DNA of 64,000 bases from Yuukianura sp. NJ FZ-2021 (lineage: Eukaryota): contig CM102284.1 of NCBI GenBank assembly GCA_046563655.1, positions 1,798,001 to 1,862,000 of the forward strand, given 5' to 3'. Positions 14,971-59,725 of the stretch are shown here, piece by piece; within the stretch, counting starts at the first letter, position 1, and each line of letters starts with the position of its first letter. The notes beneath the pieces are model-generated. The model was not told the origin of the DNA. It searched no databases and saw nothing but the letters and a program-made list of their open reading frames with translations. The translations under genes were made by a program, and so were the position numbers.

Positions 14971-15058
14971 TTTGGAAACTAGCTCAACTTCTGAACTGGT
15001 TGTATGTTTAAATAACTTTTTAAAGCCTGGACTAATATACACAGAAAATGATCATCTA

Positions 15059-15468: not shown

Positions 15469-16293
15469 TATAACAATTTGATGAAATTTTTTTTGAAAGT
15501 AGGGCATGGTGGAATTAAAAATTTGAATTTATTGATCTAAATTAGAGATCTCTATGGTCAAAGACATTCAAGCTTAACTGGACATGATTGAAATAAAACC
15601 AACGCCTGCTGATAATTCGCTTAACTTTAAAAAAAATGAACCAAATTCCGAAAATATTCCCTCGAAAATTAACAGGAAAACAGACATTGAACTATTGAAA
15701 CAGGTTGATGTTGTTCACTCGATCACGTCGCAGTTGAAAGCAACCAAAGTAGCAAAACATATTTAATTTTTAAAGACTCCAAAGACGAGAATTTCAAAAT
15801 TCCCAAAAGATTTCAAAACAAAAATGTGATTCAAGGAATATTTTTGCCATCACATTGCAAATATGTCTATCATGACCATGATTTATATTTTAAGAACAAA
15901 AGAAAAAGCAAAAGAAAATTGAGCAAAAGATTCTTAAAAACGTCGATGAGAATTTGGCAATTCAGAAAAAAGTAAGAGTATGTCAAAATTCATTTGACAT
16001 GCTCGAACGGACCGTAGCATGACAAACCTAATTTTATTTTGTGCAGGACATATCCGCTCAATGTTTTGCCTTTAAATGGGCAAAATTCAAACAATTATTG
16101 TTGTATTCAAGTTGTCCCAGGGTATTTTATACATACTATAGTTATGTATATACCACAAAATTACTGCATAATAAGCAACTAAAACAAACGTGTTAATCTA
16201 AAACGTTTTCGTCATGCAATTTCTTTTTAACTGCTTCCAGTTGACTAAAACAAACGAAACAGTCTGTTACCTTAGAACCTTTTGAAATTTGAA

Positions 16294-19241: not shown

Positions 19242-20074
19242 TTATGACACCCCTAAAAGTGGCGACGGACATGGTCTAAAGGCATAGCCCAGGAGATCGT
19301 CCTTGACCCAGCCCATATTTTCCAATGGTTTGATGTTGTAGTCCAAAGCCAATCGTTGGATATGTCCTCTGTGGAAAGCGTACAGTCCAAAAGTTCCTTC
19401 TTTTGGTTCTGAAAAGATGTACGTTTGGACGTAGTCCCGATTTGTTTTTGGTGGCCATTCAGCAGTTAGATGTTTGGTTGAAAACCGATTGTTTTTGCCA
19501 TTGTGGTACCTTAAGAGGGCAACTGTCCCATTAATTGGTGATTTTGCAACTCGAGCCAGTTCTCCCAAATGAGAGTATGTATAATATGCTAATAAAAAAG
19601 TCCAAATTTTAGTAATTAATAATAGTTAATTAATAATTTAATTCATTAATTAATAATTAAGTAGTAGCAAACTAAAGCTCTACGAACGCCCATGAAAATG
19701 AATTGATAGTCCAAGGAGTTTTTTTTTCGAAAACGGTTGAAAAATTTTAAAAAATAGGATTTAGTAATCCAATAATTTTATAGAATCATTGAAAATCATA
19801 TAAGTAGTAGATGAAACTTACAACCTTGCGGCGTCCAGACTGAGGTGTAGTAAAAATCAGGTGGAGGCGATGGAATGGTGCTCACAAACTCCCGTAACGG
19901 AACAAACCGCGAATCAGAGCACACGTCAAAAGTAAAATCCCGGTTTGTTTCTGCACTTTCGCACTTTTCGGGGCAAATAGTAGAAGAAAAGTCTAGTTTT
20001 TGTTCTGGTAAAGCTAAACTAACATTGTCCCCACCGCCGCTGGCAATGGACAATACTATTATAACCATCGACAT
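19242..20074 (-). CDS. DUF5648-like repeat protein, copy 3 (2 exons)
   Basis: Paralog of copies 1 and 2 (FDVCSDSRFVPLREF, GELARVAKSPINGT, GWVKDDLLGYAFRPCPS). Its flanks resemble those of copy 2. Confidence 0.55.
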
Positions 20075-20137
20075 TTTGGAAATGTACTGAACTGCTGAGC
20101 AGATCGCGTGTTTAAATAACTTTTTAAAGTCTGCAAT

Positions 20138-20200
20138 AATATACGCAGTAAAAAAAACACCACCTAAAAAAAACCGGTGGTGTTTTTTTACTGCATATAT
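20138..20200. repeat. Hairpin upstream of DUF5648-like copy 3
   Basis: atatacgcagtaaaaaaaacaccacc ... ggtggtgtttttttactgcatatat. Confidence 0.6.
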
Positions 20201-20535
20201 TTTACAAATTTATAAAGCAGAATATACAAAAGTAGCGAAGGATGGTGCTGCATTTGCAAACTCGCGTTAGTCATTAGGGTAATCCATGATGAAATTCGCT
20301 TATGCACTATGGCTGTAAACGGTGAAATGAAAAAATTGAACACATACCATGATTTTTGGCAGTTTTTGGTTTGTCAAAAGGTTTCTCCACAAAAGATTTA
20401 TGAAATTAATGTGTAAGGAAAATAGGTAACGGTGTGATTAAAAATTCAAATTTATTGTGCTAAGTTAACTAGTATTCAATATTTATCTTTAATAAGCCAC
20501 AATACCTGCAATATGTCGACCAACACCTTTACAAT

Positions 20536-25239: not shown

Positions 25240-26129
25240 ATACAAAAACAAGTCACGATTTTAAAAAAAAACCGCGAGCGTTTAATTAGCAATAACCACT
25301 GTGGCTATTTAAAAAAAAATTAAAGTGTACATTCCATTAATCTTGCAAACTTCAAAGCACAATCGATAAAGTTCTACATAAAATTATAAATGCACAAAAT
25401 TGAACATTTTTTGAAAAAAAAGTTTAGATATTTTAGCCCAAATTTTGTTTTTACAAAACCAAAATCTCTTCACAGCGTGATGTGACTGTGAAGTCCTCGG
25501 AATAAAATTTTCAAAAGAAAATGAAAATTACGAACATCAGAGGAAATCCAGTACATTATGTTAAAGATTGAAACTAATTTCAAAATGGTTTCATTTTGCA
25601 CTAAAATGCATTCCATTTCCAACCAAAATTTAACCTTGGTAATCTATTTAGCTTAACTTTTAATGTTACCATATAAACTCAGCCTTATCAATCGCATACG
25701 CGTGTCAGTGAAAAACAAAAAAGTCAATTAAAATTTATTCTAAAATTACCTACTTTTTTAGTGTAGAAATTTCGAAATTTACTTTTGTGTTTTCCTTATC
25801 CAAGGAGAAACTGTAGTAGATAGGGTGCATCCGGATCCTTGTACACCACAAATAGATTAGTTGCTTAGATAAGGAAAAAACATGCTAAATTATCACCTCA
25901 ATACGACGTTTGTGATGTCAATAGAGTAAACGACAAACTATTTCGAAATAAAAGTTACATGCGCAGTTATGTTTTCAATTGTGTTGTAAAAGTGCTGAAA
26001 ATAACCAGATAAAAAAGTTATTCATTTCAAAAATGGTGCCATTTTCTGAAATCTGTGGAAATTTTTTGCTAAAAATGGAAATTCTTAGAAATTTTCGTAA
26101 ATAAGTACAAGAAAAAAAAAGTTTTTGCC

Positions 26130-26741
26130 ATGTTAAGCGCACCAGCAATTGTACCTCTACTGACTTTGTTCGCGGGATATTTCAAATCCGAAGATGTTTC
26201 AAATCCTGCAATTGTTCCCGCTCAGAATAATCACCTGATCCGTCCAGGAACTAACGAGTATCCAATTCATGGCGGTGGAATTGCAACAGTAACTACTCAA
26301 CTAATTGATGGAGTTGAGTTGCCAGTGGCTGTTACTGCAACGATTACCGTCGGAATGATTCGGGAAGAATCGGAAAATTTCGACTCAGTAGAGGGCGTTG
26401 CTGATTGGCTGGCAACCAGGCAGGCGAGGCATGACGATAACCTTGGACTTATTCTTGGATCACGATTGGGTGGACCTCGTGACCAATGGAATCTGATTCC
26501 TGTAGCACGTGACTGTAATGAATATGCTTCAAGCCATAACTGCGCTGTATGGTTTGAACTGGAGCGGGAAATAGTGAAATACGTTCAACGTACAAGAGGA
26601 TACGTGCAGTGGAGGATGTGGCTCAAGTATGAGAATAAGACAGAACCTAGACGCCCATCATCATTTCAAATTGCGGCGCGATTTTTCAAATCTGGCAAGC
26701 TCATAACACAATTTGACACTGGAGCATTACTCAACACATAA
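26130..26741 (+). CDS. DNA/RNA non-specific endonuclease (His-Me finger, Endonuclea_NS_2-like), catalytic His apparently replaced
   Basis: Intronless. DDNLGLILGSRLGG...NLIP...N...W..LEREI...V.W...Y...RRPSSF follows the D-x-G-H-L-L-x-x-x-L-G-G...N...W...E...RP pattern, with Leu in place of His. Confidence 0.6.
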   Translation: MLSAPAIVPLLTLFAGYFKSEDVSNPAIVPAQNNHLIRPGTNEYPIHGGGIATVTTQLIDGVELPVAVTATITVGMIREESENFDSVEGVADWLATRQARHDDNLGLILGSRLGGPRDQWNLIPVARDCNEYASSHNCAVWFELEREIVKYVQRTRGYVQWRMWLKYENKTEPRRPSSFQIAARFFKSGKLITQFDTGALLNT

Positions 26742-32800: not shown

Positions 32801-33980
32801 TGTCGAATATGCATTTCAGAATGTAAAGCATGTTAAATATTGTTCAAGTTATGCGAAACCAGTTCTTCAAATACCCCGCATAATTTTAGTTGGAAAACTA
32901 AACCGTACAACCAAGGGCAACCTGATAATTAAGGCATGGTTTTTTTAACTCCACTAAAGGCTTAGCCCATTTTTGTAAAGACCTCAATTTTTTTTATTAT
33001 CTTGCTCTCGCATATCAGTGCGAAATTTTTTATTACACATTCGTCATACACAGATTTGCAGTATTACATCTGAACTTTGTTGAAGTTCGTGATAAATGTT
33101 TAATGTCTTCCATCCACTAAAAGTCTTATCCAGTGTGGGCGAATTTCTTCCAATGGGATACGTGTTAGGGTCAATTCGCCGTTACTTTTTTAAGCATCCA
33201 GCGATAAAAGCGAGTGTCTGTTCATGTCAACTCAAGGCCAAACTCTTGTTAACTACAACACATTACTTCTCGTTTTTCTTTAGCTTCAAATCTATTTATA
33301 CCTATGACTAATCCATGCTGAAATTTCTGAGAAGCAGACTGCATTTCAGCGCTATCATATTAAAAAAAAAAGAATTTTTTTTTGTCAAAGGAGTGGCACT
33401 TCCATCTAAAAACTGCTAACTTCAATTCATTTCGTTTTAAACGGAGGAAAATACTGTTTACATCAAAAGGTACACCACGAAACTTTTCAAATTCCCTTAC
33501 CAATACCAAAGCAGCGCTAGAAACACTGCTCCGTTTAGAATTACTAATACTTTCTTTATTTTTTTTTACAGGAAATTTACATTTACATTCTAAGAACTGC
33601 AGCTTGAAAGATAAAAGTCAATTGGAGAAAGTTGAAGTTGAGTAATTTGTGAAGGTAATTGTTATGCTAATTAATTCCTTCTTGGAAAGAAAATATTTAA
33701 ATCAAACACAACGCACTACGTTGCAATTAATTTAAACTCCATAATCGGGTTGAAGCAAACTTTGCTTCGCCACCTGTCCCAACCAGTTCAAATTTTGGCG
33801 CTACTTCTACCTGGAGGAGCAAAGGTTTTGCGGTATTGTACTACCCACAGAAAGAAAAACCTTGTGCTCTGCAGATTTTCTTTCACTTCACTGCAAATAA
33901 ATATAAATCCATATTTATGTCATTCTGTCAAGAAATTTTATCTTAAGAAAAATAATTTCAGGTGAATCATTCCCAGAAAC

Positions 33981-36900
33981 ATGGACAGAATTACGCGTCC
34001 TGCTCTTGGAAGTTTTGCAAAATTGGGAGATTTGTACGACGTTCGTTGCGACAATTTCACGGGCGGGACAATTTTTCGACGGGAATTGACTGACGAAGTG
34101 ACCATCCGAGATAACCCAAGTAGTGACACAAAGTTCATCACATCTGACAAGATTTCTGCCAAGTTTGAGCACTTGGACGTCAGCGCTGAATTGAAGTTGA
34201 GTGTTCTCGGAGGCCTAATACCACTAGAAGGATCTGGAAAGTACTTGCAAGAGGAAAAGTTACATGCACGAGATGTCAGTTGCTCATTGATTCAAAAAAT
34301 TACAATGGTGTACGAAGAGCTTAAAGTTTATGACGACACACTCAAAGACATTATTTCACATACGGCACTCAAGAACTGTCGGGCTACACATTTCGTAGGT
34401 GGGATTTACTGGGGAGCAAATCTCGTAGCAACTGCAACTTATCGAAACGAAAAGAATGAAGACAAAAGAGAAATTGAGGGAAATCTAAAAGCGCAGTTCA
34501 ACAAAATCCCGAAAGTTGCTATTGGCGGTTCCTCAGAAGTGGACTCGAAGGTTTCAGGATCCAAAAATACTGAAAAATTTTCACTTCATGTTCTCGGAGA
34601 CGTTTTGCCTCAAGGAATTTTGCCTAAAACAATTGAAGAAGCACAGAATTTGATTTCTGCTCTGCCAGAACTTATACAGAAAACTAACAACGGGAAAGGG
34701 AGACCGATGATATATGTACTGTATCCATTGACATTTCTCAAGGACCAACTTAATTTGGAAGTTCAAATTGATAACACAATTGTTAAACTTGGCGAGGAGA
34801 CGGTCCTGCGCGTTGTTCAACTTTTCGATGACATCCAAAATGTTAAGCAAATACTCAACGACATTCACGACGACATCGTCCATCACTCGTTCTGCCTCCA
34901 TCCAGAAACTGTCCAGGCAATCAAAGATTTGAAAATGAACTCAAGTGTTTCTGAGGCCAAGATTCGCGCCGATTTTACTACTCTCTTGAATCAAGTCAAG
35001 CGTAATGAAGATGGAAAAACGTTTGCAGATATTGACCGTCTTATTGAAGAATTTAAAAAAGCAGACTATTCTCCAACAAAAGTTGTGAGTCTCGCTGACT
35101 CTCACTACGCAACAGCTAAAGAAAAAATTGAAACCCACCAAGCCTTAACTCGTCACGAGGTCAGTTTTCTCTCAAAGCATGAAAATAGCCTAGACGTGTC
35201 CCTACTCAACAACGACGACAGAGACATCTATTTCTTGTTTTCGGATTCCAAGGTCAAGGAAGAATCCAAAGATCGCTGGTTGGCAATGATTCATCTCTTT
35301 TTGTCCATCATCAAAAGTGGTGAATCAGCCTCAACTCCACCAAAATTTATTTATGTTGACACTGACATTTGTCCACGTCTGGCTATTCCTGGAGGCATCG
35401 GAATTCAACATTTTAGAAACGGAAAGTGCGTGTCGCCCGACGTTTACGCAGATACACAAAGACTGGCCAACGTTTGTGTTGCCTTTTCGCCAGAAACGAC
35501 CTACTGTTCTGAACTTCCTGAGCAGACAACGGAAGTGGAAATTCGGTGCCCAGGTTCCTTAGGTGGAGGTCAATGTGGTCACAAACTGCAAGAGTTCAAA
35601 TGTTCAAAATGCAAAAAAAATTTGAAATTCGGTTTCGATGATAAGTTCTATTGCAATTGCGGGTCAGCTCAAGCGCAGACGTATGAGTTCAAGTGCAATG
35701 ATGGTAAACATGGACTTTGCTTCTTGAAGTTTGAAAACGAGGATGTTTTGGAAAAACTACTTGAAAAATTGGTTGTTTTTGAAGAAAAGAATATCTTAAT
35801 TCTGGGTGAAACTGGAGCGGGAAAATCAACATGGATTAATGGCATTGCCAGTTACTTGCAATTTTCGACATTCGATGAAGCTATGAAGAACGAGTTCCAT
35901 TGTCCAATTCCATTCTCATACACAGTTAAAAATGAAGACGGCAAAGACGTAACTTACAAAACTGGAAAAGACAAAAATGAAGGCATAAGAATTGCAGAAG
36001 CTGGTAAATCTGTCACCCAGTATCCCAAATCACATGTTTTCAAAAGACGAGACAAACTGTTTCGATTAATCGACACTCCTGGACTCGGAACTTTCCTAGA
36101 CAAAAATGAAAATTATCGGCGGATAATGGAGTACATTTCAGACCTAAGCGAACTCCACGCGATTATTATTGTCATCCACCCGCAAAGTTTGAATTTTACT
36201 TCTTATGTTAATTGGTTGCTTGCTCGCCTTCACGTCAAAAGCAAACCAAACATTTGCTTTTGTTTCACCCATGGGAGAAAACATGGCTATTTACCTGGTG
36301 ACGCTTATGGCTCCCTAGTGAAAAATCTAAAAGACGCCAATTTTGAACCAGTCCACTTCATACATTGTGCAGTGGATAACGAATCTGTACGGTTTCTTAC
36401 CCAACACAAGTTAAATAGTGATCATCCGACTTTAGATGAAGAGTACTTAAATTGCAACGATAGTTGGACTAAGTCTGCCAAGGAAACAAATAAGTTTTTT
36501 GACCGCATCTTGGACCTTAGTCCCTGCAGCACTGAAGATATCCTTGGTATCCATTTGTCTCTGCGTGAACTGAACGTTACTACAAAAATGATTTTGGAAA
36601 CAACCAAAAAAACTAATGAACTGGCTGCCATAAGAAAACAATTGGACATCAAATTGGGTGAGAAGAATGTCACTTGCAAAGAGTTGAGCTGCAAGTTATA
36701 CATTCCCACAATAGAATTAGAGCACAAACGTCTGGATTCTGTACGAATCGTCTGCACTGCTCCAAAATGTGTTAAATACGTAAGGTTCAATGGAGTAGAA
36801 CATGTGAATTATGTTCAAGTCTGTGACAACGACTGCCAAGACGATATTCTACGTATCGGAACAGTGCCCAACCCTGAAATTAAAAATTCGGTTGTGATGG

Positions 36901-37349
36901 ATACAGATTCCAACTGCACAAAATGTGGTTGTTCGTATGCTCTTCACATGGGTCTCAACTACTCCACAACAGAAGTTCTTAGGCAAGTAGAAGACGCCAA
37001 CATTCAACTGAAGTTGAGTCAAGTTCAGAAGGAAGCGGAAGCATTAGACAAGGAATTAGTCAAAGTCGTTATAAGGGCGATTGATCTTGCGAAATTGAGC
37101 AATGAATATGCAAAGAAGATTCAAATGATGCTTAAATCTGTGAATACAGACGCCATTGCACCATATGATGACTATATTGATGAGTACTTGGACACATTAA
37201 TTGCCAGGGAAGAAGAAAATAGAGCCCTCGGAGGAAGTATGGACGTTCTGAACGAACTTCGCGAACTGAAAATGCTTAATTTAAATGAAAACGTGCTAAC
37301 AAAACTCTGCAAAATCGAAACAATAGATTTAATTTCCGATAGTGAATGA
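33981..37349 (+). CDS. Stonustoxin/verrucotoxin-like (MACPF/CDC-type) N-terminal domain + Cys-rich linker + P-loop GTPase + Cys-rich/coiled-coil tail, 1122 aa
   Basis: Uninterrupted ORF. RPALGSFAKLGDLYDVRCDNF, ELKLSVLGGLIPLEGSGKYL and ATHFVGGIYWGAN are stonustoxin-like. ILILGETGAGKSTWIN is G1 and LIDTPG is G3; several CxxC clusters. Confidence 0.75.
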   Translation: MDRITRPALGSFAKLGDLYDVRCDNFTGGTIFRRELTDEVTIRDNPSSDTKFITSDKISAKFEHLDVSAELKLSVLGGLIPLEGSGKYLQEEKLHARDVSCSLIQKITMVYEELKVYDDTLKDIISHTALKNCRATHFVGGIYWGANLVATATYRNEKNEDKREIEGNLKAQFNKIPKVAIGGSSEVDSKVSGSKNTEKFSLHVLGDVLPQGILPKTIEEAQNLISALPELIQKTNNGKGRPMIYVLYPLTFLKDQLNLEVQIDNTIVKLGEETVLRVVQLFDDIQNVKQILNDIHDDIVHHSFCLHPETVQAIKDLKMNSSVSEAKIRADFTTLLNQVKRNEDGKTFADIDRLIEEFKKADYSPTKVVSLADSHYATAKEKIETHQALTRHEVSFLSKHENSLDVSLLNNDDRDIYFLFSDSKVKEESKDRWLAMIHLFLSIIKSGESASTPPKFIYVDTDICPRLAIPGGIGIQHFRNGKCVSPDVYADTQRLANVCVAFSPETTYCSELPEQTTEVEIRCPGSLGGGQCGHKLQEFKCSKCKKNLKFGFDDKFYCNCGSAQAQTYEFKCNDGKHGLCFLKFENEDVLEKLLEKLVVFEEKNILILGETGAGKSTWINGIASYLQFSTFDEAMKNEFHCPIPFSYTVKNEDGKDVTYKTGKDKNEGIRIAEAGKSVTQYPKSHVFKRRDKLFRLIDTPGLGTFLDKNENYRRIMEYISDLSELHAIIIVIHPQSLNFTSYVNWLLARLHVKSKPNICFCFTHGRKHGYLPGDAYGSLVKNLKDANFEPVHFIHCAVDNESVRFLTQHKLNSDHPTLDEEYLNCNDSWTKSAKETNKFFDRILDLSPCSTEDILGIHLSLRELNVTTKMILETTKKTNELAAIRKQLDIKLGEKNVTCKELSCKLYIPTIELEHKRLDSVRIVCTAPKCVKYVRFNGVEHVNYVQVCDNDCQDDILRIGTVPNPEIKNSVVMDTDSNCTKCGCSYALHMGLNYSTTEVLRQVEDANIQLKLSQVQKEAEALDKELVKVVIRAIDLAKLSNEYAKKIQMMLKSVNTDAIAPYDDYIDEYLDTLIAREEENRALGGSMDVLNELRELKMLNLNENVLTKLCKIETIDLISDSE

Positions 37350-38175: not shown

Positions 38176-38789
38176 TTTAAGAGAACGTAGACTCCGGAAA
38201 TATTGAGCAGCATAAAGGCAAAACCGTTTAAAAAAAGAGACGTAATTTTGAATACATATGGATTCCTTTCTAAATTCATGCTAAATTTTATATTCCTTTT
38301 ATCCATTTAAAAGTTTTTTGATTTTTGTCTGGTTTATGTCAACTCAAGGCCACGTTCCTGTTACCTTATAAGGCTTGTAACGTCTCGCTTTTCTTTCGTT
38401 TCAAATCTATTTATACCTAAGACCATGCTGAAACTTTTCAGGAGTCTAGAATTCAGCACGATTCTATTTCTAAGAAAGAAAAAGCTTTTTTTTTCTTGTC
38501 AAAGAAGTGGCCACTTCCCTAAGAACTGCTTTCAATTGATTTCTTTGTACCGATCGTAGTAAAATACTTTTTTGCATCAAAAGGTTTTACCAAATATTTC
38601 TAAACACTTATTAACGCCGCGCTGTTAAAAAAAATGTGCTGCTTTTGGTGTTGTTCATAATTTCTTCACTTTCACGTATTCTAAAAACTGAACTTCGAAA
38701 GATACAAGTCAGTTGGAGAAAGTTGAACCTCAGTGATTTGTGGAGGTAGTTCTTATACCAATTAATTCGTGGAAAATTATTTAAATCAT

Positions 38790-40442
38790 ATGGAATATAT
38801 CCCTGGAGCCATCGGAATCCAACATTTCAGAAACGGAAAGTGCGTGTCGCAAGACGTTTACGCAGATCGCCAGAAAATGGCCAACTTTTGTGTTGCCTTT
38901 TCGCCAGAAACGGCCTACTGTTCTGAACTTCCTGAGAAGACAACGGAAGTTGAAATTCGCTGTCCAGGTTCTTTGGGTGGAGGTCAATGTGGCAACAAAG
39001 TGCAAAAGTGGTCTTGTCCAAAATGCAAGGAGATTTTGAAATTCGGGTTCGATGATAAGTTGTATTGCAATTGCGGGTCAGCACAAGCGCGGACGTACGA
39101 GTTCAAATGCAATGATGACAAACATGGACTACGCTTTTTGAGGTTTGAAAACGAAGACGTTTTGGCAAAACTGGTGGAGAAATTGGTGGTTTTTGAAGAA
39201 AAAAATATATTAATTTTGGGTGAAGCTGGTGCCGGAAAATCAACATGGATTAATGGAATGGCTAACTACTTGCAGTATGCAACATTCGATGAAGCTATTA
39301 AGAATGAGTTCCACTGTCCAATTCCATTCTCCTACACAGTTAGAGACGAAGATGGTAAGGAAGTAACTTACGAAACCGGAACAGACAAAAACGAACTAAT
39401 TGGTACTACAGAAGCTGGGAAATCTGCCACTCAGCATCCCAAATCACATGTTTTGAAAAGAGGAGACAAACTGTATCGGTTAATCGACACACCAGGATTC
39501 AGTAATTTCCAAGACAAAGAGGAAAAGTATCTTCGGATCATGGAGTACATTTCAGACTTTGCTGAACTCCACGCCATTTTAATCCTCATCCACCCGGACA
39601 GCCCGAATTTTAGTTTTTATGTTAAATGGTTGTTTGCCCGCCTTCATAAGAATTGCAAACCAAACATTTGCTTTTGCTTCACCCATGGGAGAAAACACGG
39701 CTATTTACCTGGTGACGCTTATGCGACGCTCTCGAAAATTTTAGAAGACGCCAATTTCGAACCAATCCACTGTGTTAATTTTGTACTGGATAACGAATCT
39801 ATCCGGTTTCTGGCGCAACTCAAGTTAAATAGTGACTACCAGGCTTTAGATGAAGAATACTCAAATAGCAACAGAAGTTGGACTCAGTCCGCCGAAGAAA
39901 CCAATAAGTTTTTTGACCACATCATGCAGCTTAATCCGTGCAACACTAAAGATATCGTTGAACACCATTTTTCTCTGTGTCAACTAAATGTTACTGCAAA
40001 AATGGTTTTGGAGACAGGCAAAAAAGCTAATGAACTCGTTGCCCTAAAAAAGAAATTGGAAACCCAGTTGGATGAGACGAAGGCCACTTACAAGCAGCAA
40101 GTGGAAGACCCCAATACTCGACTGAAGATGAGTGAAGTTAAGCAGGAAGCGGAAGCACTTGAAAAAGAAATACTGGAAGTCAATGCCACAGCTATGGATA
40201 TTGCGATACGTGTATTTAAAGACGCCGAGAATATACAACAACTCGTTGAACGCGTAGCTATAGACGCCATTGCACTATTCGATGACTACCCTGAGGAATA
40301 CGTAGAAACGCTAACTGCCGTTGCAGCGGAATTTGTAGCACTTCGTGTAAATACTGAAGCTACGTACGAATTTCCTGAAGTGAAGAGAATTCATTTGCCG
40401 GAACCACAACAGCGACCTGCCAAACCTGCGAGACGACGGTAA
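38790..40442 (+). CDS. Truncated tandem paralog of 33981-37349: Cys linker + GTPase + coiled coil only
   Basis: High similarity from IPGAIGIQHFRNGKC onward; GEAGAGKST and DTPG retained. Lacks the ~470-aa N-terminal region and a ~100-aa Cys-rich segment, yet the frame is open. Confidence 0.7.
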   Translation: MEYIPGAIGIQHFRNGKCVSQDVYADRQKMANFCVAFSPETAYCSELPEKTTEVEIRCPGSLGGGQCGNKVQKWSCPKCKEILKFGFDDKLYCNCGSAQARTYEFKCNDDKHGLRFLRFENEDVLAKLVEKLVVFEEKNILILGEAGAGKSTWINGMANYLQYATFDEAIKNEFHCPIPFSYTVRDEDGKEVTYETGTDKNELIGTTEAGKSATQHPKSHVLKRGDKLYRLIDTPGFSNFQDKEEKYLRIMEYISDFAELHAILILIHPDSPNFSFYVKWLFARLHKNCKPNICFCFTHGRKHGYLPGDAYATLSKILEDANFEPIHCVNFVLDNESIRFLAQLKLNSDYQALDEEYSNSNRSWTQSAEETNKFFDHIMQLNPCNTKDIVEHHFSLCQLNVTAKMVLETGKKANELVALKKKLETQLDETKATYKQQVEDPNTRLKMSEVKQEAEALEKEILEVNATAMDIAIRVFKDAENIQQLVERVAIDAIALFDDYPEEYVETLTAVAAEFVALRVNTEATYEFPEVKRIHLPEPQQRPAKPARRR

Positions 40443-42419: not shown

Positions 42420-43677
42420 GTTCATGATCAAAGATTCCAAAGTCCTGGTTAAACTTAACAAGCCTACTTAACATTTTTCTTGCTCACGAATATCCAGTAG
42501 CAGTTAGCGTCGTGTTTTCTGAGAAATTAATTTCAAAAAAAGTTTTGTTTTTCGATTTGTCGTTTTCCTCATACTTATTTTGATTTTGATTTATTTCGAT
42601 TAGTCTTCTAAGCATTTTTCATTTACTACTCTCATAATTAAGTTCAACTTACGGATCGTTGGATCTTTTGCAACTGCAATTTTTGTATGAGCAATCTCTA
42701 ATCTCAAAAGCATAATAAACCGGATTTTAAATTATTATCTACTAAAATAGTTGTATCAATAAATAGTGCTATAAAATAATTTCATATCACATAATTTTTA
42801 AGTGTTTTCCTTGACATGAGGTTGATGTAATTCAGACGTTATAGGCAATAAATTTTTCCAGTAACAGTTGAACAATTGAAATTGTGGAAATTATTGGTAT
42901 AGTTTTGACCCCCCGCTCATAAAAAATTTTGACAGTACAAGAAATTGAAATTGTTCTTTTCATTGCATTTTTTTTGCAATGCGAATCTTCAGATTTTCTG
43001 GAACTGAAATTTTTTGAGGGGAAAGACTAAACCATAAGATAAAGAATCTTTGAAACTACTGTAAATACTATAAAGTAAAATAGTTCTTATTTTCCTCATG
43101 GAAATTTCATGCCCGAATCATTCTATAATTGGTGTGTTTGTCACGAGTTGGTTTTGGGTGATAAACTTATTCAGAAGCATGAAATCAGACAAAAATATTT
43201 GCAATAACAGTTGAATAATTAAAATTTTGATGAGTTTTTGTTATTGCTTGTTTTGAGTAAACACTACCGACAGACTAGTCAAAATAATAACAATGCGTCA
43301 CCCACGTTTGCAGCTGAATAGAAACTGGTTCCAGGAATGTAGCAACAGCTTTGTCGCAAATCTGAAAAGCTGTGAGTTTTATATCGACTTTACTAGTTTT
43401 TAACATAAACTTCCTGGAACTGGAATGTTTTGGGTTTGTATGCAATAGTTCTTGGAAACCTGACTAATTATAATAAGCTTTTCAATTTTATTTGAAGTTT
43501 GACGTAAATTTTCCAGTTTAAAAAGAGTAAGCAGCGGAGATTTTTGCACAGAATAACAAGCTGCACTCGTGAAAGCCAGTTTTAATAATTCAAACAAGTT
43601 GAATCTTAACATTTTTTTTTTGAGTTTTAGTGAAAAAATTTAACAAATCTTTGTTGTTAAATTTCTACAATTGTACC

Positions 43678-44307
43678 ATGATTACGGTACGATCATTCAT
43701 TTTTGCTGCGTTTATAATCGGCGCCAATTCGCAATTCCCAGATTGGTTTGCATACAACACAAAGCTTTGCTACGATTGGTCAGCCGATGGAGACGGTGGT
43801 CAATGCGCAGGTCCTTCGAATTCGCTCTGCGCAGGCGTCAATGACAGGACGCCAAACTACCGAGATGACACGGACAACCGTGGTGGAGGATGTCAGATGA
43901 GCTGGAGAATCGATTCTCCAAATGCCCCTGATTGGTTCAAGCAAGTTCAGATTTGCTACCGGTGGTATGCCGATGGTGACAACGGACAATGTGGCGACCA
44001 TTCTGGTCGTGGCGAAGTTTGCGCCTATGTGGGACAAGGGACACAGAATTATCGAGATGACACTGATAAACGTCCTGGAGGATGTCGAATGAGCTGGAAA
44101 CTCAAAGTACCACCCAGCGCTGAAAGTTGGATGTTCAACACTCGGCTGTGCTACTCTTGGTATGCTGATGGAGACGGAGGTCAATGTGGAGGCGGGGCTG
44201 GAAATGACCTTTGCGCCCGTGCAAACTACTGGACGGACTACTACAGAGATGATACTGATGGAAGGCCTGGAGGATGTCAGATGTCATGGTCACTTCTGAC
44301 AAACTAA
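43678..44307 (+). CDS. Secreted Cys-rich triple-repeat protein, perivitellin-2 67-kDa C-terminal (IMAD)-like, copy 1
   Basis: Signal peptide plus three repeats of CYxWxADGDxGQC...CA...YRDDTDxRxGGCxMSW; intronless. Confidence 0.65.
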   Translation: MITVRSFIFAAFIIGANSQFPDWFAYNTKLCYDWSADGDGGQCAGPSNSLCAGVNDRTPNYRDDTDNRGGGCQMSWRIDSPNAPDWFKQVQICYRWYADGDNGQCGDHSGRGEVCAYVGQGTQNYRDDTDKRPGGCRMSWKLKVPPSAESWMFNTRLCYSWYADGDGGQCGGGAGNDLCARANYWTDYYRDDTDGRPGGCQMSWSLLTN

Positions 44308-44821
44308 CGTTTTCAAAAATTTTCAAAAAATCTGTCATTGCTTCGAATAGAAATTTTCGAATCGGACATTGTTTCGACGCTCTTAACAAATCTAATGCAA
44401 ATTAACCTAAATCTAAGCCCTAAATACTAAACAATTAGTGTTTTGAAATAATTATTTTTTCGAAACAATTCGCATTCGAAACAATCTTTTCGACACAATG
44501 GTGTGTACCCGGTCCCTAAGCACTTTCTCCCCTTATGCTTCTTTTTGTTTTGCTTTCGTTAAATTAATCATAAAATTTAAAAAAAATTGACAGAAGGAAA
44601 AAACAATTTCATAGAGTACGTTTCCTCAACATTAGTAATTACAAAGTAACTAACTAAATTACCAAGTAATTATTTTAATTAGAAACTAATTGGCTATAGC
44701 TGTTAAACCTTATTACAAATAGTTATAAAATTCCATCTTTAAATTCAAAAACTCGCGGAATTAAATATTCCCTTTTTAGGATTTGTCTGTAGTCCAAGTT
44801 ATTTGAAAGAGAATTCGAAGG

Positions 44822-45556
44822 ATGTTAACCAATCAAACGTTGCTTTTTGTTGTACTTGGTATCGGTGTGAAGTTCGATCTTCCAACAGACAATTCCGTGC
44901 TTCCAGTAGTACTTCCGGAGCTTTCGGACCAGAATTCTGAACTTCCAGACAACAACTCGAAACTTCCAGCAGGAAATGATAGTTCACAACTTCCAGACTG
45001 GTTTGCAAAGGACACAAAATTTTGTTATGATTGGTCAGCAGAAGGAGATGGCGGGCAGTGCTCAGATCCATCAAATTCGTTCTGCGCAGGCGTCAATGAG
45101 AGGACAGCAAAATACCCAAACGACACGGACAGCCGCAGTGGAGAGTGTAAGATGAGTTGGAGAATTGATTCCCCTAATGCCCCTGATTGGTTCAAGCAAG
45201 TTCAGATTTGCTACCATTGGTCCGCATATGGCGACAACGGACAATGCGGGGACCATGGTCAGGGAGAAGTAGTTTGTACCAACGTGGGACAAGGGACACG
45301 GAATTATCAACATGACACTGATGACAGTGGATGTCGAATGATCTGGAGCTTGAGAGTTCCACCGAACGCTGAAAGTTGGATGTTCAAAACTCGACTGTGT
45401 TATCATTGGTTTGCAGAGGGAGAGGGAGGTCAATGCGGAGGTGGGGATGAAAATGACTTATGCGCCGGCGCTAACTACTGGACGGAGTACTACAGAGATG
45501 ACAGTAACGGAAGAGGCGGAGGCTGTCGCATGTCATGGTCACTTCTGAGCAACTAA
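44822..45556 (+). CDS. IMAD-like triple-repeat protein, copy 2 (degenerate repeats 1 and 2)
   Basis: Paralog with an added ELPxxNS-type linker; motifs altered to YPNDTDSRSGEC and YQHDTDDSGC. Confidence 0.65.
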   Translation: MLTNQTLLFVVLGIGVKFDLPTDNSVLPVVLPELSDQNSELPDNNSKLPAGNDSSQLPDWFAKDTKFCYDWSAEGDGGQCSDPSNSFCAGVNERTAKYPNDTDSRSGECKMSWRIDSPNAPDWFKQVQICYHWSAYGDNGQCGDHGQGEVVCTNVGQGTRNYQHDTDDSGCRMIWSLRVPPNAESWMFKTRLCYHWFAEGEGGQCGGGDENDLCAGANYWTEYYRDDSNGRGGGCRMSWSLLSN

Positions 45557-45987
45557 CGTTTTCAAAAAACGTTTTCGCATTTTGTAGAACAATTCAATTT
45601 TATTTCAAAAGTACTTTTTCAGCTTACGCTCCTTTTTCCTGTGTTTTAATTTTACATTACATTACTCATTTAAATTTAAAAAAAATTAAGAGAAGGAAAA
45701 AAACAATTTCAAAAAATGAGTTTCCTCAAAATTAATAATTATTAGTGTTAATATTCTAAAGTATTAATTTAGTTAATTACTTTGGAATTAATTGCAAGGT
45801 AATTAACTAAATTACCAAGTAATTATTGTAATTAGGAATTAATTGGCTACGGCTGTTATATCTTACGTCAAATAGTTGTAAATAATCCAAGCATATTTAA
45901 ATGCCAAATTCCCGAAATTCAATATAATTCAGTTCCTTCCTCATCCAGTATTTCTTAGTGCCAAGGATTTAAAGAAGAATTGAAAAA

Positions 45988-46749
45988 ATGGTAGCAAATC
46001 AAACACTGTTTTTTGTTCTATTTGGTATCGGTGTGAAATTTGATCTTCCAGGAAACAATTCCGAACTTCCTAGAAATAATTCGGTAGTTCCAGAAAAACT
46101 TCCGGAACTTCCAGGACAGAATTCTGGAGTTCCAGACGATAACTCAAGACTTCCGGCAGGAAATGATAGTTCACAACTTCCCGACTGGTTTGTATACGAC
46201 ACAAAACTGTGCTATGATTGGGTAGCAGATGGAGATCGCGGGCAGTGCGCAGGTCAATCAAGTTCGCTCTGCGCAAACGTCAATGAGAGAACACCAAACT
46301 ACCGAGACGACACTGATCACCGTGGTGGAGGGTGCCGGATGAGTTGGCGCATTCATTCCCCGGACGCCCCTGCTTGGTTTGATCGTGTTCTGATTTGCTA
46401 CCGATGGTATGCTGATGGCGACAATGGACAATGTGGCGACCATTCTGGTCGTGGAGAAGTTTGTGCCTATATGGGAGATGGGACGCCGACTTATCGGGAT
46501 GACACTGATGGTCGTCCTGGAGGATGTCGCATGAGCTGGAAGTTGGACGTACCATCGGACGCTGAAAGCTGGATGTTCAACACTCGCCTATGTTACTACT
46601 GGTATGCAGATGGAGATGGAGGTCAATGTGGAGGTGGGGTTGGAAATGACCTTTGCGCCGGCGCAAACAACTGGACGGAGTACTACAGAGATGACACTGA
46701 TGGAAGATCTGGAGGTTGTCAAATGTCATGGTCACTTCTGACCAGCTAA
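45988..46749 (+). CDS. IMAD-like triple-repeat protein, copy 3
   Basis: Paralog with the ELPxxNS linker and three intact YRDDTDxRxGGC motifs. Confidence 0.65.
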   Translation: MVANQTLFFVLFGIGVKFDLPGNNSELPRNNSVVPEKLPELPGQNSGVPDDNSRLPAGNDSSQLPDWFVYDTKLCYDWVADGDRGQCAGQSSSLCANVNERTPNYRDDTDHRGGGCRMSWRIHSPDAPAWFDRVLICYRWYADGDNGQCGDHSGRGEVCAYMGDGTPTYRDDTDGRPGGCRMSWKLDVPSDAESWMFNTRLCYYWYADGDGGQCGGGVGNDLCAGANNWTEYYRDDTDGRSGGCQMSWSLLTS

Positions 46750-54081: not shown

Positions 54082-55039
54082 AACTTTCTAGCTTTTTACT
54101 TTTCGGACTAAAAGTGTATTTTCAAAACTTATGCAGAATTTAAAAAATTCCAAAATATTGTTTTTTTCAAACGTCATCACACCTTCGAACTTTCTAGCTT
54201 TCTACTTTTTGGAAAAAAGTGTATTTTCAAAACTTATGCAGAATTTAAAAAATTCCAAAATATTGTTTTTTTCAAACGTCATCACACCTTCGAACTTTCT
54301 AGCTTTCTACTTTTTGGAAAAAAGTGTATTTTCAAAACTTATGCAGAATTTAAAAAATTCCAAAATATTGTTTTTTTCAAACGTCATCACACCTTCGAAC
54401 TTTCTAGCTTTCTACTTTTTGGAAAAAAGTGTATTTTCAAAACTTATGCAGAATTTAAAAAATTCCAAAATATTGTTTTTTTCAAACGTCATCACACCTT
54501 CGAACTTTCTAGCTTTCTACTTTTTGGAAAAAAGTGTATTTTCAAAACTTATGCAGAATTTAAAAAATTCCAAAATATTGTTTTTTTCAAACGTCATCAC
54601 ACCTTCGAACTTTCTAGCTTTCTACTTTTTGGAAAAAAGTGTATTTTCAAAACTTATGCAGAATTTAAAAAATTCCAAAATATTGTTTTTTTCAAACGTC
54701 ATCACACCTTCGAACTTTCTAGCTTTCTACTTTTTGGAAAAAAGTGTATTTTCAAAACTTATGCAGAATTTAAAAAATTCCAAAATATTGTTTTTTTCAA
54801 ACGTCATCACACCTTCGAACTTTCTAGCTTTCTACTTTTTGGAAAAAAGTGTATTTTCAAAACTTATGCAGCATTTAAAAAATTCCAAAATATTGTTTTT
54901 TTCAAACGTCATCACACCTTCGAACTTTCTAGCTTTCTACTTTTTGGAAAAAAGTGTATTTTCAAAACTTATGCAGAATTTAAAAAATTCCAAAATATTG
55001 TTTTTTTTTCAAACGTCATCACACCTTCGAACTTTCTAG
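54082..55039. repeat. Tandem array of about nine near-identical 105-bp units
   Basis: Unit ...cttatgcagaatttaaaaaattccaaaatattgtttttttcaaacgtcatcacaccttcgaactttctagctttctactttttggaaaaaagtgtattttcaaaa with period 105. Confidence 0.97.
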
Positions 55040-55161
55040 TTTTCCGGAACAAAAATTTGGATTTACACCCTAAATTTACAGAAACAGGAGAATAAATGAA
55101 ATGAAATGAAAATGAAAAATAAATGTAGTCCATTGGAGTAATGTCAATGTGAATCAAGAAT

Positions 55162-56625
55162 TTAAACCCGAGTTTCGCCACTTTTCAAGGAATTTGCACC
55201 ATCTTCTGAATTTCGCTTTGAAATTAAAAATTGGAGCGTAGGAGTTGATTTTGAATAATGAAATGGATTATGAAGCGATTTTCCAGATGTTGGTGGAGCT
55301 TTGAAACGCACAAAGTGCAACTGGGCATTGATCTTAGATCGCTTCAAATCCGACATGAATTGAGGTGGTGAATAAGTCCTTTCAGAATTCCAGTGCCCAG
55401 AATCGCTGATTCCTTCGCTGCTGCCAGTTCCAGCTGAACCTGTTGATGGTTTTACCAGAATCAACTTCAAGTTCACCTCAGTGGGAACTTTGTCTGAAAC
55501 GGAGTGAACGTATACGTGTTGTACATGTTTTGATTGATCTGTAACGGCAGCTTCAGCGATGTTGGTGTTTGTTGGTTGTTGGAAAAATTCTGCAGCATGC
55601 GATGCCATTGGTGGATTCCAACCTTGGGACGTCGAGTGACCAAACATCGGTTTCAACGAAGAACTTAATGTTGTGGCGAGGCCTTCGACAACACTTTTGA
55701 AAAAAGTGCGAGGAGGGGCGTATGAGGGTATTTCTTGTTTGAATATATTGTAATTCGGCGGTTTGTATACTGAGTCATTCACTGTCTCATAACTTGGGAG
55801 TTGACCTGCGCCGACGCTGTGGCTGTAAGCATTTGCTTGTTGATATGCTGGAAATTGTGGTCGTTCGTAGTTCGGAACAGAATCTGCGCTGAAAGTGTAA
55901 CTGTTCCTTGTAGGACTTTTATAGATGAAGCGATGATCAGTTTTGTAATGATCTCCAGTATCTAGAGCGGGATATTCAGATTTGTAGCTGTTGTAGGGAA
56001 CAGGTTCAGTATAGAAGTCATGTTCGCGCATGCTCCGAATTCCTTTCCATCTGTTGAATTTGTCGTTACCATCGCCCAGAAATGCATTTTGATACTGCAC
56101 AGGCGCGGATGATTCTAAAGGAACTGAGTGATGTTGAAAATCCGCAATTTCTTGAGACGGACTGTAATCGTATTGGCCGCCATGCGTTCGGGAATATTCA
56201 AAATTTTGCGGGTTTATCGTTTCGTGACCTGGCGCGTTACCAAAATGCTGAGTATTATGTCCATAATCACTTGCAAAATTTTTCCAATCGCTTGAGGCGT
56301 CAGTCCAAGATGACGTTGCATAAGGTACTGTTGGAGAATATGCATTGCTTGAGTATCCATTTCCAGAATAATGTTCATATCCAGGAGAGTTGTAGTGATG
56401 TCTGCTGTAATCGCTGCCAGCCGAAAATGCTTCTGTAGGAAGCAAGTGCTTGCTGCCAAAATGGTGTGATGAAGGTGGTTCTGCATTCAATGGTTGACAT
56501 AGCCAAGTCAGCTTTAAATATAAAAAAAGTGAGTTTTTCTTAGCTTAACAAAAAATGTAAAGTGTACCCAAATTAAAAGAAGAATCTTTTACCAGAATGG
56601 TAGAGAATAGAAGCAGTTTAAACAT
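55162..56625 (-). CDS. Secreted S/Y/H-rich protein with Tweedle/DUF243-like blocks (putative cuticular protein), 2 exons
   Basis: Signal peptide MFKLLLFSTIL|LTWLCQPLNA; C-terminal blocks KHVQHVYVH, NLKLILVKP and QLHFVRFKAP resemble Tweedle blocks I, II and IV. Confidence 0.5.
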
Positions 56626-57109
56626 TTCTAAGCGAACCGAAGGAAGATGAAGTTCAAACAAAATCTAAAAATTAACTAAAACTAAAATGGTGTTGCTCGT
56701 TGAATCGAGAGGTTTTAAACAACCGATTTCACAATTATTAGGAAGAAAGTAATTGAAAAACAGGTTCTAAGACCAATGGTTTACAGAACTTCGAAACAAA
56801 ATTTAGCATACAATAGAATCTTAGAAAGTAAATAGAGATTAGGAATTTTTGCATTTCTGTGTAAAAGAAAATAAAACTTTCCACTGATTTAAAATTTAAT
56901 ATAAACCTAGAGATTTATTCTGCTTTTTCTTTTATAAAATAACTAAGTCCAGTGATTTCTTAAAACAATTTTTTATTATTTAAACAATTTGTATCAATTT
57001 TTTGGTTAGGTTAGGTAATTGGATTCAAATCCGGAAAATCTTTAAGGCTAGACATTAAGCTCACCACGTCTTTGCACATAGTCATCAACACGGACTAAAC
57101 ATGTTTGTC

Positions 57110-57450
57110 CTCCAATGAGAAATGACGTAAAACTTTGACCTAATCAAAAAAACAGATTACTCCAGGTCATGACATCATGCCGAGTCGAGCAGTCCGTGGG
57201 AACACTCGTCATTGGATAGGCGTTAAATCTCTAGCTCGTTAGCAACGGACTAATCTACTTTGTCATCAAATGATGCAAAACATTGACCTCATGATGAATT
57301 GTAAAAACAGATAAGTCCAGGTTATCCTTAAACCGACTGGTCCATTGGAACACTCAAAACACAACGTCATTGGACATGCGTTAAATTTCCAGCCCTTGGT
57401 ATGAAAATAAACAGCCAATGCGTCCTCAAATGACGTAAAACTTTGTTAGT
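57110..57450 (+). repeat. Imperfect ~155-bp tandem duplication upstream of bioA, with two aatgacgtaaaactttg (CRE-like) sites
   Basis: acagattactccagg...ggaacactc...cgtcattgga..gcgttaaat occurs twice; ccaatg...aatgacgtaaaactttg occurs at about 57112 and 57415. Confidence 0.55.
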
Positions 57451-57497
57451 CGTAAACAAACCATTCTTTGGTTACAACAGATTTGCAAGTTCTAAAA

Positions 57498-57580
57498 CTA
57501 TATAAAGAGATCTCCTTTTGTTAGTTGTTAAAAGCATTAAGAGCTTAGTTGTTAAAAGCATTAAGAGCTTAGTTGTTCAA
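57498..57580 (+). promoter_or_regulatory. TATA-like box (tatataaag) followed by a 24-bp direct repeat (about 2.5 copies)
   Basis: ctatataaaga about 150 bp upstream of the bioA ATG, then ttagttgttaaaagcattaagagc repeated. Confidence 0.45.
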
Positions 57581-57652
57581 AAGATTTCCTTGTTAGCAGC
57601 GCTAATCCAGAGATAACTTCTAGTTTCTGAAGTGTTCGTTGATTTAAAAATT

Positions 57653-58993
57653 ATGGAGCATCAAAATAATTCTGAAATTTTGGACAAGTTGGAGGATATT
57701 GATAGGAAATTGGTTTGGCATCCACTAACTCAACAAAAACTAGCTCTCGATCCAATTCCAATTGCAAGAGCCAGTGGATCCTACATTTACGATGTCAACG
57801 GAAAAGCTTACTTGGATCTTGTATCCAGTTGGTGGGTAAACATTCATGGGCATTGCCATCCAGAAATTGCGGAAGCAATTCACAAACAAGCTACAACCTT
57901 GGACCAAGTCACTTTTTCTGGACTAACGCATGAGCCAGCAGTCAAGCTCTGTAAATCTCTGGCTCAAATCTTGCCGCCGCAATTGCAACGCTTCTTTTTC
58001 TCGGATAATGGGTCCACTGCAGTGGAAGTTGCACTCAAAATGGCATATCAATACTGGATCAACACTGAAAAGAAGGAACGACCCATCGTGTTGAGTTTCG
58101 AAGGAGGATTTCATGGTGACACTCTAGGGGCTATGGCTGTTGGGCGTGGTTCTGGATATTTTGAACTTTTTGCAAATCTATTAATGAAATCGCACCAAAT
58201 TCCATTTCCGGCAACTTGGATCGACGATGCAGACGTTGATGAGAAAGAAGCACAAGCGTTGTCTGTTCTAAAAGACTATCTTAATGAAAATGGAAACAAC
58301 GTTTGTGCCATTTTTATGGAACCGTTGGTCCAAGGAGTAAGTGGAATGCGCATGTGCCGGGTTCAATTTCTAGAGCAAGTTGTTCAACTCGTCCGAGAAT
58401 ATTCGATTTTAGTAGTTTTTGATGAAATAGTGACAGGATTTGGTCGAACGGGAACAAATTTTGCACTTGATCAAGTCAAAGAGACATGCCGCCCGGACAT
58501 TCTATGTTTGGCCAAAGCACTCACTGGTGGATTTCTGTCAATGTCATTGACCGTGACAAGTGACAAAATCTATGAAGCGTTTCTTGGAGACGACCTTGCT
58601 TCGACATTTCCGCATGGACATACATACACAGCAAATCCCATTTGTTGTGCAGCAGCGGTCAAAAGTGTGGAAATTTTCAAAAGAGAGAAAACTGCTGATT
58701 CTATTGCAGCAATTCATGAGGCACATTTGGTTGGGTTGAAAGATTTGGAGAAAATCCTGGGGAGTAAAATTTTGCACATGAGAACACTAGGAGTAATTGC
58801 TGCATTTGAAATTTCTCCGGATTGCAAACTTGTTCCTAACGCGGTCTGGGACAGAAGATTTTCCAAGGAAGGACTCAACATGTTCGTTTTCGGATATTCC
58901 ACGGTTTACATTATCCCGCCGTACTGTACTACACCCGAGGAAATACTTGGAGCATATCGCACTATTGCCAAGGTCATAGAAGAATTTGCATAG
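57653..58993 (+). CDS. bioA: BioA-like class III PLP aminotransferase (DAPA synthase family), bacterial type, intronless CDS
   Basis: WHPLTQ, DLVSSWWVNIHGH, FSDNGSTAVEVALKMAYQY, FHGDTLGAM, EPLVQG, FDEIVTGFGRTG, PDILCLAKALTGG (PLP Lys), HGHTYTANP, YIIPPY. Confidence 0.88.
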   Translation: MEHQNNSEILDKLEDIDRKLVWHPLTQQKLALDPIPIARASGSYIYDVNGKAYLDLVSSWWVNIHGHCHPEIAEAIHKQATTLDQVTFSGLTHEPAVKLCKSLAQILPPQLQRFFFSDNGSTAVEVALKMAYQYWINTEKKERPIVLSFEGGFHGDTLGAMAVGRGSGYFELFANLLMKSHQIPFPATWIDDADVDEKEAQALSVLKDYLNENGNNVCAIFMEPLVQGVSGMRMCRVQFLEQVVQLVREYSILVVFDEIVTGFGRTGTNFALDQVKETCRPDILCLAKALTGGFLSMSLTVTSDKIYEAFLGDDLASTFPHGHTYTANPICCAAAVKSVEIFKREKTADSIAAIHEAHLVGLKDLEKILGSKILHMRTLGVIAAFEISPDCKLVPNAVWDRRFSKEGLNMFVFGYSTVYIIPPYCTTPEEILGAYRTIAKVIEEFA

Positions 58994-59725
58994 CAATGTC
59001 GTAAGTGATATTTTGCATTTCTATACAAAATGGATTTTGTTACAATTTACTTCATTAACTATTTATTTTGTTTTTAATTTTTGTTTTGATTTAGATGAGA
59101 ACGATGATATGTAAAGAATTCCAAGAAGCTGACGTTTTGATCCCATTTAGCTTAAAACAGATAACTTCAAACTGAAACTTTAATATTTTAGAAAGTGAGG
59201 AGTAACCTTTGAAATCTTCTGCTCAAAAATTTTTAGTGAAACTACACAAAACAGTTTGAATATTAATTTTTAGGAGCGTAATTCCTGGGAATTTTCGAAA
59301 CTATTGTTCAATAAGTTGTGATTTTCCTTGATGTCCCAAAAGCAATTCACTTGTGTCTTGTGATGTTGAATATCAAGCGTTAAGTATAGTTGTGAGTAGT
59401 GCTTTTATTATTAATTATACATTAGTTATTATAATTATAAATTGTTTATAATTTAACTATCTATCTATTTCCTGAATTTTTTTTGTCTTATTCTCTTTTC
59501 AAGCGGAAATAAAATCAATTCGTAGTCAAATGGTTTTTTTTTAAACTGATCGCAATGATGTCATTGCGTGGGACCAACGGGATTTAGAGTTAATCTGTGA
59601 TGACTTTTTTTTACTACTTTCTTTGTGTAAATCTAAGAAGATAAAGATTAGATTAATTTCATTCTTTTTAAAATGACTTTCGAAAAAGTTAACCGTAGAA
59701 TTTTTCAATGGTTAAAGTCATTAGG

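Follow-up and report, generated by a model that had tools for sequence, protein, structure and literature searches.

What does an enzyme of bacterial biotin synthesis do in the genome of an animal? The question is raised by a bioA-like gene on the plus strand at 57653-58993 of a 64,000-nucleotide stretch of contig CM102284.1 from Yuukianura sp. NJ FZ-2021 (the whole stretch is called the window below). BioA takes 7-keto-8-aminopelargonic acid (KAPA) as its amino acceptor and gives 7,8-diaminopelargonic acid (DAPA), and the residue that holds the KAPA carboxylate is replaced in the window protein. We consider it very probable that the gene belongs to the BioA family, was acquired by horizontal transfer and is resident in an animal genome. 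What the gene now does is a less certain matter. Our best reading, held with moderate confidence, is that an old and domesticated transfer has given a transaminase with altered acceptor specificity, which acts in place of DAPA synthesis.

The reading frame begins with ATG at 57653, ends with TAG at 58991-58993 and runs intronless and uninterrupted through 446 codons, as the first-pass annotation had described it. An in-frame TAA (57614-57616) lies 39 nt upstream of the ATG, and the window is free of N throughout. The translated protein scored 493.7 bits against TIGR00508, the NCBIfam equivalog model of bioA with a cut-off of 405, and missed three narrower bioA equivalogs (NF004624, 461.6 vs 494; NF005443, 343.9 vs 729; NF005940, 318.2 vs 625). 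Its sole Pfam match was PF00202 with 327.6 bits. Among sequences of solved structures, 36 matched at E <= 1e-40, and the best 20 were all BioA. The AlphaFold model, calculated from a 75-row alignment, had a mean predicted local distance difference test score (pLDDT) of 87.3 and a predicted template modeling score (pTM) of 0.89. All of the top fold matches of this predicted model were BioA proteins, those of Citrobacter, E. coli, M. tuberculosis, M. jannaschii and B. subtilis, with TM-scores of 0.80-0.88 when normalised to the query. The predicted product is thus a folded class III pyridoxal 5'-phosphate (PLP) aminotransferase of the BioA family, encoded by the coding sequence at 57653-58993 (446 residues and TAG), and is presumably dimeric.

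For the comparison of residues, E. coli K-12 BioA from NC_000913 was aligned to the window protein, and residues were also read codon by codon. Conservation was taken from 147 bacterial BioA proteins, namely 120 database matches, 26 proteins from genome loci and the E. coli protein; 17 of the 43 genome loci, in which no clean BioA open reading frame (ORF) was picked, were left out. A second and more diverse sample held 150 BioA-family representatives. The cofactor and catalytic residues are kept in the window protein (W60, W61, G120, S121, H154, G155, D156, E223, D257, R265, and K288), in agreement with the earlier description of its PLP motifs and tryptophan pair as intact. K288 (AAA, 58514-58516, plus strand) is the Schiff-base lysine, equivalent to E. 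coli K274. R265 corresponds to E. coli Arg253, which we take to be the residue of the half-reaction with S-adenosylmethionine (SAM). There are 42 invariant columns in the 147 bacterial proteins, and the window protein keeps 40 of them. The only two that are lost are neighbours: Arg391 has become Phe411 and Pro392 has become Val412 (TTC GTT, 58883-58888, plus strand), and the E. coli segment GVWIR(391)PFG reads GLNMFVFG, with the F411 codon TTC at 58883-58885. The first-pass annotation had pointed to the loss of the carboxylate-binding arginine. This arginine turns out to be, along with the adjacent proline, the sole universally invariant feature that is lost, each of the two being present in 147/147 bacterial BioA.

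At less strict thresholds, the window protein deviates at 5/68 columns conserved in at least 97% of the bacterial proteins and at 7/81 columns conserved in at least 95%; the median row deviates at 1 of the latter, and some divergent bacterial BioA at 7-11. Arginine stands at position 391 in 144 of the 150 representatives, and the other six include five with a truncated or misaligned C-terminus. The lone full-length protein without the arginine in this sample is P0407, which is 38% identical to the window protein and keeps Tyr144. P0407 is unnamed and presumably bacterial, and is a second natural case of an altered Arg-Pro pair. An excerpt of PMC5935190 describes a salt bridge between KAPA and Arg400 of M. 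tuberculosis BioA, the equivalent of E. coli Arg391, and calls the residue 'conserved in all species'. By the genetic code, Arg to Phe and Pro to Val require at least two base substitutions each, and the change is therefore not a single recent slip. No new basic residue is found in the 409-414 segment of the window protein. Elsewhere in the sequence, six novel basic residues (H77, H181, K276, K337, K346 and K392) are candidates for compensation.

Two further changes had been proposed in the first-pass annotation as special to KAPA binding. L25 (CTA, 57725-57727, plus strand) stands at E. coli Tyr17 and turns WHPY into WHPL, and F153 (TTT, 58109-58111, plus strand) stands at Tyr144 and turns GYHGD into GFHGD. 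These replacements, like that at Arg391, are real by alignment and by codon, but both occur in natural proteins that pass TIGR00508. Position 17 is Phe in 127, Tyr in 18 and Leu in 2 of the 147 bacterial proteins, and Leu in 5/150 representatives. Phe at position 144 occurs in 1/147 and in 6/150, and all six of these representatives pass the model. One protein with F144, the 663-residue BioD-BioA fusion P0408, would hardly be expected to serve anything but biotin synthesis. Compared in this way, L25 and F153 are within natural BioA variation and add little to the case, which consequently rests on Arg391-Pro392. Mutational work on E. coli BioA bears on both sites: the R391A mutation reportedly leaves the SAM kinetics near normal and raises the Km for DAPA some 180-fold, and in Y144F the half-reaction with DAPA is reported to be three orders of magnitude slower. 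The case for the Arg-Pro pair appears to be reinforced by the changes that flank residue 411, which are L409N, I/L410M, L413F and a one-residue insertion after G414. Three polar pocket candidates have turned into phenylalanine (Y153F, H170F, and R411F), the location of H170 in the pocket being itself a candidate assignment.

The relatives of the gene point to bacteria. In the search for the closest relatives among 5.8 billion clusters, scoring was applied to the 8000 candidates with the most shared words, and the best 120 were used. These were 49-55% identical to the window protein by BLASTP, and up to 56% by alignment, with lengths of 417-450 residues and named sources that were all bacterial. 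The named near relatives come from Rickettsiaceae, Midichloriaceae, Fokinia, Jidaibacter, Mesenet, a Bartonella and a Verrucomicrobia metagenome-assembled genome. Among 1.84 billion representatives, the best of 31,247 matches reached 51% identity. The closest protein on bacterial genome contigs was 48% identical, and on JGI metagenome contigs the closest was 47% identical for a partial match and 45% for a full-length one. In a FastTree analysis of 148 rows, the gene fell within a 116-row clade of its own matches, where two unnamed metagenome proteins form its sister group (SH-like support 93). In an IQ-TREE analysis (LG+C20) of 47 of the 148 rows, it belonged to a 30-row clade (SH-aLRT 83) and branched there from a polytomy. 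The end branch of the gene, 1.01 compared with 0.22-0.62 for peers from the same node, was the longest in that clade, and the window lineage appears to have evolved 2-4 times faster than its relatives. The nesting of the gene in a bacterial clade bears out the earlier proposal of a bacterial gene integrated by horizontal transfer among animal genes. A phylogeny against Wolbachia, Cardinium and Rickettsia had also been called for; the clade does include Rickettsiales, but it is poorly resolved and no specific donor emerges. From these sequences, the donor would be a BioA type circulating among intracellular bacteria including Rickettsiales. The bio gene sets of intracellular bacteria are discussed as BOOM in PMC7750005.

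The gene looks resident in the host genome and not a contaminant. As the first-pass annotation had noticed, it lies between spliced animal genes: the neighbours are animal-type and each is pieced from several separate ORFs, with a rhodopsin-family seven-transmembrane receptor at 59.7-62.7 kb and a GT10 fucosyltransferase at 52.2-53.3 kb, both on the minus strand. Further animal-type genes of the window encode an IU-nucleoside hydrolase, a MACPF/SNTX-GTPase protein and a farnesyl-diphosphate synthase, and one exon of the last has its best named matches in Allacma fusca (65%), Orchesella cincta (60%) and O. dallaii (60%). All three are springtails, and by this one gene the host appears to be springtail-like. 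No ORF of at least 60 residues is present in the 1.1 kb 5' and the 0.7 kb 3' of the bioA-like gene. The GC content of the gene is 42.5%, slightly above that of its flanks (~29-39%), and its GC at third codon positions is 36.5%; 16 host ORFs have 27-50%. Its relative synonymous codon usage correlates with that of the pooled host codons at r = 0.69, and the values of the 16 host genes are 0.33-0.89. The earlier observation that the window has no further bio gene was upheld by tblastn of the 64 kb with E. coli BioB, BioF, BioC and BioD, which gave no match at E <= 0.01 besides the bioA-like ORF. ORFs flanking four bacterial bioA loci likewise matched the window only at the bioA-like ORF at this threshold, and no second bioA-like copy was found in the 64 kb.

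The pattern of change along the protein is informative about selection. Compared with the clade consensus, the window protein differs at 35/191 highly conserved columns (18%) and at 155/238 other columns (65%), and all indels in the gene are in frame. In a crude simulation of neutral decay, the coding sequence stayed without a stop codon in 16/300 runs when amino-acid divergence was 10%, and in 0/300 when it was 20, 30 or 40%. It is probable that the gene is still selected as an enzyme. We read these patterns as pointing to continued selection on the fold and the PLP chemistry, with a constraint on the substrate site that may have shifted or been partly relaxed.

A scenario that would link these observations is as follows. 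A bioA gene of the BioA lineage common to Rickettsiales and other intracellular bacteria would have passed into the germ line of a springtail-like arthropod, to be domesticated in the host after the transfer. The first half-reaction, in which an amino donor, possibly SAM, turns PLP into pyridoxamine 5'-phosphate, would have been kept; it is probably preserved because the Arg253 equivalent and the cofactor site are intact. In the second half-reaction, the carboxylate-bearing KAPA would no longer be selected. The pocket wall would have turned more hydrophobic with Phe-Val-Phe, and the amino group would pass to another, more hydrophobic carbonyl acceptor. The enzyme would thereby have left biotin synthesis for a different amine-forming or amine-removing role in the host. 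The earlier suggestion of repurposing is in this respect a reasonable inference from the changes of Arg to Phe and Pro to Val and from the continued constraint, but to place the enzyme in secondary metabolism or in detoxification is purely conjectural. As a more specific and doubtful proposal, the product could be a springtail enzyme, possibly SAM-dependent, that aminates lipid-like ketones or alpha-aminoketones lacking a carboxylate, such as compounds with a KAPA-like head group on a plain alkyl chain, for springtail-specific amine or diamine products of the cuticle or of chemical defence.

Membership in the omega-transaminase family was considered and rejected. Models of such enzymes gave ~220 bits, well below their own cut-offs and below the 494 bits of bioA, and the position of their arginine is Phe in the window protein. 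The 'flipping' arginine of class III amine (omega-) transaminases presumably sits at the position equivalent to BioA Arg391. Judged by its sequence, the window enzyme would act on a carbonyl that lacks a carboxylate, in the manner of an amine transaminase, but as a BioA descendant and not as a member of that family.

Several observations weigh against a re-specified enzyme. The window protein still passes the equivalog model TIGR00508. The full-length, 419-residue P0407 has Gln-Thr in place of Arg-Pro and passes the same model with 443 bits; given this protein, loss of the arginine is evidently not unique in nature. The clustering of changes near residue 411 was not significant, with a maximum of 4 in 5 residues and p = 0.16 by shuffling. 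The change at conserved columns, 18.3%, is twice the 9.1% expected from the bacterial trend (z = 6.1), and this doubling fits partial relaxation as well as it fits a shift of function; an outlying bacterial BioA (L002) has 14.6% of its conserved columns changed. The long branch may in part reflect evolution before the transfer, in an unsampled bacterial donor, which would weaken the decay simulation. Finally, no orthologue closer than 56% was found among the 5.8 billion clusters (best 120 of 8000 scored), the 1.84 billion representatives and the bacterial and metagenome contigs.

Among other explanations, the one that survives best is that the protein is a still working DAPA synthase in a biotin pathway of the host or of host plus symbiont, the loss of the arginine being tolerated or compensated. 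It has all cofactor and catalytic residues intact together with the TIGR00508 match, its residues 17 and 144 have natural counterparts that include F144 of the BioD-BioA fusion, and P0407 with Gln at 391 passes the model as well. The transferred genes of whiteflies 'can synthesize biotin' according to an excerpt of PMC8659303, and since the need for biotin is tiny, even a poor enzyme might suffice. However, tolerance of the loss would have to be reconciled with an Arg-Pro pair that is universal in the bacterial set and an arginine that is nearly so among the representatives, and this arginine is the partner of KAPA in the salt bridge described in the excerpt of PMC5935190. Compensation is not apparent from the 409-414 segment, which gained no basic residue, and the 64-kb window offers no further bio gene to complete a pathway. 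We therefore regard a working DAPA synthase as unlikely, although it has more in its favour than the explanations that follow.

A second explanation is that the gene is a relic, which lost its function after the transfer and has been drifting since, its frame being still open because the relaxation is recent. The longest end branch of the clade, the doubled change at conserved columns and the loss of two invariant residues would all be expected of such a gene, and neither an orthologue in the databases searched nor partner bio genes in the window were found. Against these stand an intact frame of 446 codons with in-frame indels only, the retention of 40/42 invariant columns, and the concentration of change outside the conserved columns (18% compared with 65%). 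Stop-free frames were rare in the simulation at 10% divergence and absent at 20% and above, the host-like codon usage argues for long residence, and the model of the fold is confident by its pLDDT. Drift after loss of function seems quite improbable to us. An assembly artefact, in which a bacterial read or contig from a symbiont or contaminant was misjoined into the animal scaffold, would suit an intronless, bacterial-type gene with a GC content a little over that of its flanks, but it is most improbable for a single gene that has AT-rich, ORF-free flanks on both sides with animal genes beyond, no other bacterial ORF detected in the window, a GC content equal to that of host coding ORFs, host-like codon usage, at most 56% identity to any bacterial protein found, and a eukaryote-style TATA-like box and repeats upstream. 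A domesticated transaminase with altered acceptor specificity remains the reading that we prefer.

The region upstream of the gene contains several repeated elements on the plus strand. A TATA-box-like TATATAA, recognized by consensus match only, lies at 57499-57505, about 150 nt 5' of the ATG. Further upstream, comparison of repeats revealed a unit of ~150-160 bp in about 2.5 diverged copies (57090-57450). It carries an 18-nt element, AAATGACGTAAAACTTTG, with a core, TGACGTAA, that resembles the cAMP response element (CRE); this element is present three times, at 57120, 57268 and 57428. The 18-nt elements and the repeats may serve as promoter elements. Between the TATA-like motif and the ATG, repeat finding gave a 24-bp tandem repeat in 2.6 copies (57521-57583), and the acquired gene seems to owe its promoter region (57090-57583) to local duplication. 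On the 3' side, the first AATAAA after the stop codon is 515 nt away (59508-59513, plus strand) and is a possible polyadenylation signal by motif match only.

Other features of the window were noted in passing. A 105-bp tandem repeat at 54082-55044, with 9.1 copies of 98% identity, is AT-rich (that kilobase has 27% GC) and sits between the fucosyltransferase gene and a low-complexity ORF at 55162-56544. Four tandem paralogues of a large gene in two ORF pieces are on the plus strand at 4401-6721, 7123-9741, 10396-12640 and 16276-18784; their C-terminal half is transmembrane, with a weak, sub-threshold match to ligand-gated ion channels (PF00060, E 0.009). The four paralogues are interspersed with and followed by small paralogous minus-strand genes (12783-15051 and 19242-20209), which have no Pfam match. 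At 43624-46749 (plus strand), three tandem paralogues encode a secreted-looking, cysteine-rich protein with three internal repeats of the form WYADGDGGQCG ... YRDDTD.R.GGC.MSW; one copy was scanned and had no Pfam match. The MACPF/SNTX-GTPase gene at 33966-37349 (plus strand) encodes a single-ORF protein of 1127 residues with a MACPF/SNTX pore-forming-type domain, DUF7656 and a P-loop GTPase domain, and a partial duplicate of it, which has no N-terminal part, is located 1.4 kb downstream at 38766-40442 (plus strand). An ORF at 26073-26741 (plus strand) has a borderline match to PF13930, a DNA/RNA non-specific endonuclease family (28.0 bits vs a cut-off of 27). Since the PF13930 domain is common in bacterial toxins, this ORF may be another foreign-derived gene. 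An Rfam scan of the window gave 0 matches.

The closest functional reference for the gene product is E. coli BioA (EC 2.6.1.62; PDB 1QJ5 and 1DTY), with which it shares the fold (TM-score 0.88) at 33% identity. Both have the PLP lysine, Asp245, Glu211, Gly112-Ser113, Trp52-Trp53, Asp147 and Arg253 (E. coli numbering). They differ in that the window protein has Phe-Val for Arg391-Pro392, Phe for Tyr144 and Leu for Tyr17, and in that E. coli bioA is part of a bio operon whereas the window gene stands alone in an animal genome. The R391A and Y144F mutants of the E. coli enzyme (PDB 1MGV and 1S09) are engineered single mutants at two of the positions changed in the window protein, and the model of the latter matches these structures as well as it matches wild-type BioA. 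The BioA proteins of Rickettsiales and other intracellular bacteria are the closest in sequence (49-56%) and resemble the window protein in the region of their WHPF-type N-terminal motif and in the overall motif set. All of them keep GLLIRPLG, in contrast to GLNMFVFG in the window protein, whose branch is 2-4 times longer and whose codon usage is host-like. If the gene still makes DAPA, Arg391 would be less essential than the structural work implies.

Transfer of bio genes into arthropods is known; new here are the host group and the rewritten substrate anchor. No report of a bioA-type gene in springtails (Collembola) was found in the literature searched, and the main texts of the genome papers of Folsomia candida and Orchesella cincta contain neither 'biotin' nor 'aminotransferase', although their supplementary tables of horizontal gene transfer might list the gene. 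We found no case in print of a horizontal transfer into an animal that was followed by re-specification of the active site, and a re-specified springtail enzyme, if true, would be an unusual example of it. Whiteflies, mealybugs and scale insects are known to carry transferred bioA, bioB and bioD. In whiteflies, as in the window, bacterial biotin genes are resident in an arthropod genome, and the transferred genes are reported to make biotin (excerpt of PMC8659303, citing Ren et al. 2020). The whitefly genes described there come as a biotin-making set, whereas the window has bioA alone in 64 kb with its anchor arginine lost. The loss of Arg391 would argue against a contribution to biotin of the whitefly type. 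The hosts differ as well, the whitefly being a sap feeder and the window host a springtail-like hexapod. If expressed and active, the gene would be a natural experiment in how an animal re-tools a foreign enzyme and a ready scaffold for a transaminase freed from the carboxylate requirement. The transfers of biotin genes into sap feeders are read as nutritional patches, and here the same enzyme is met in a soil hexapod.

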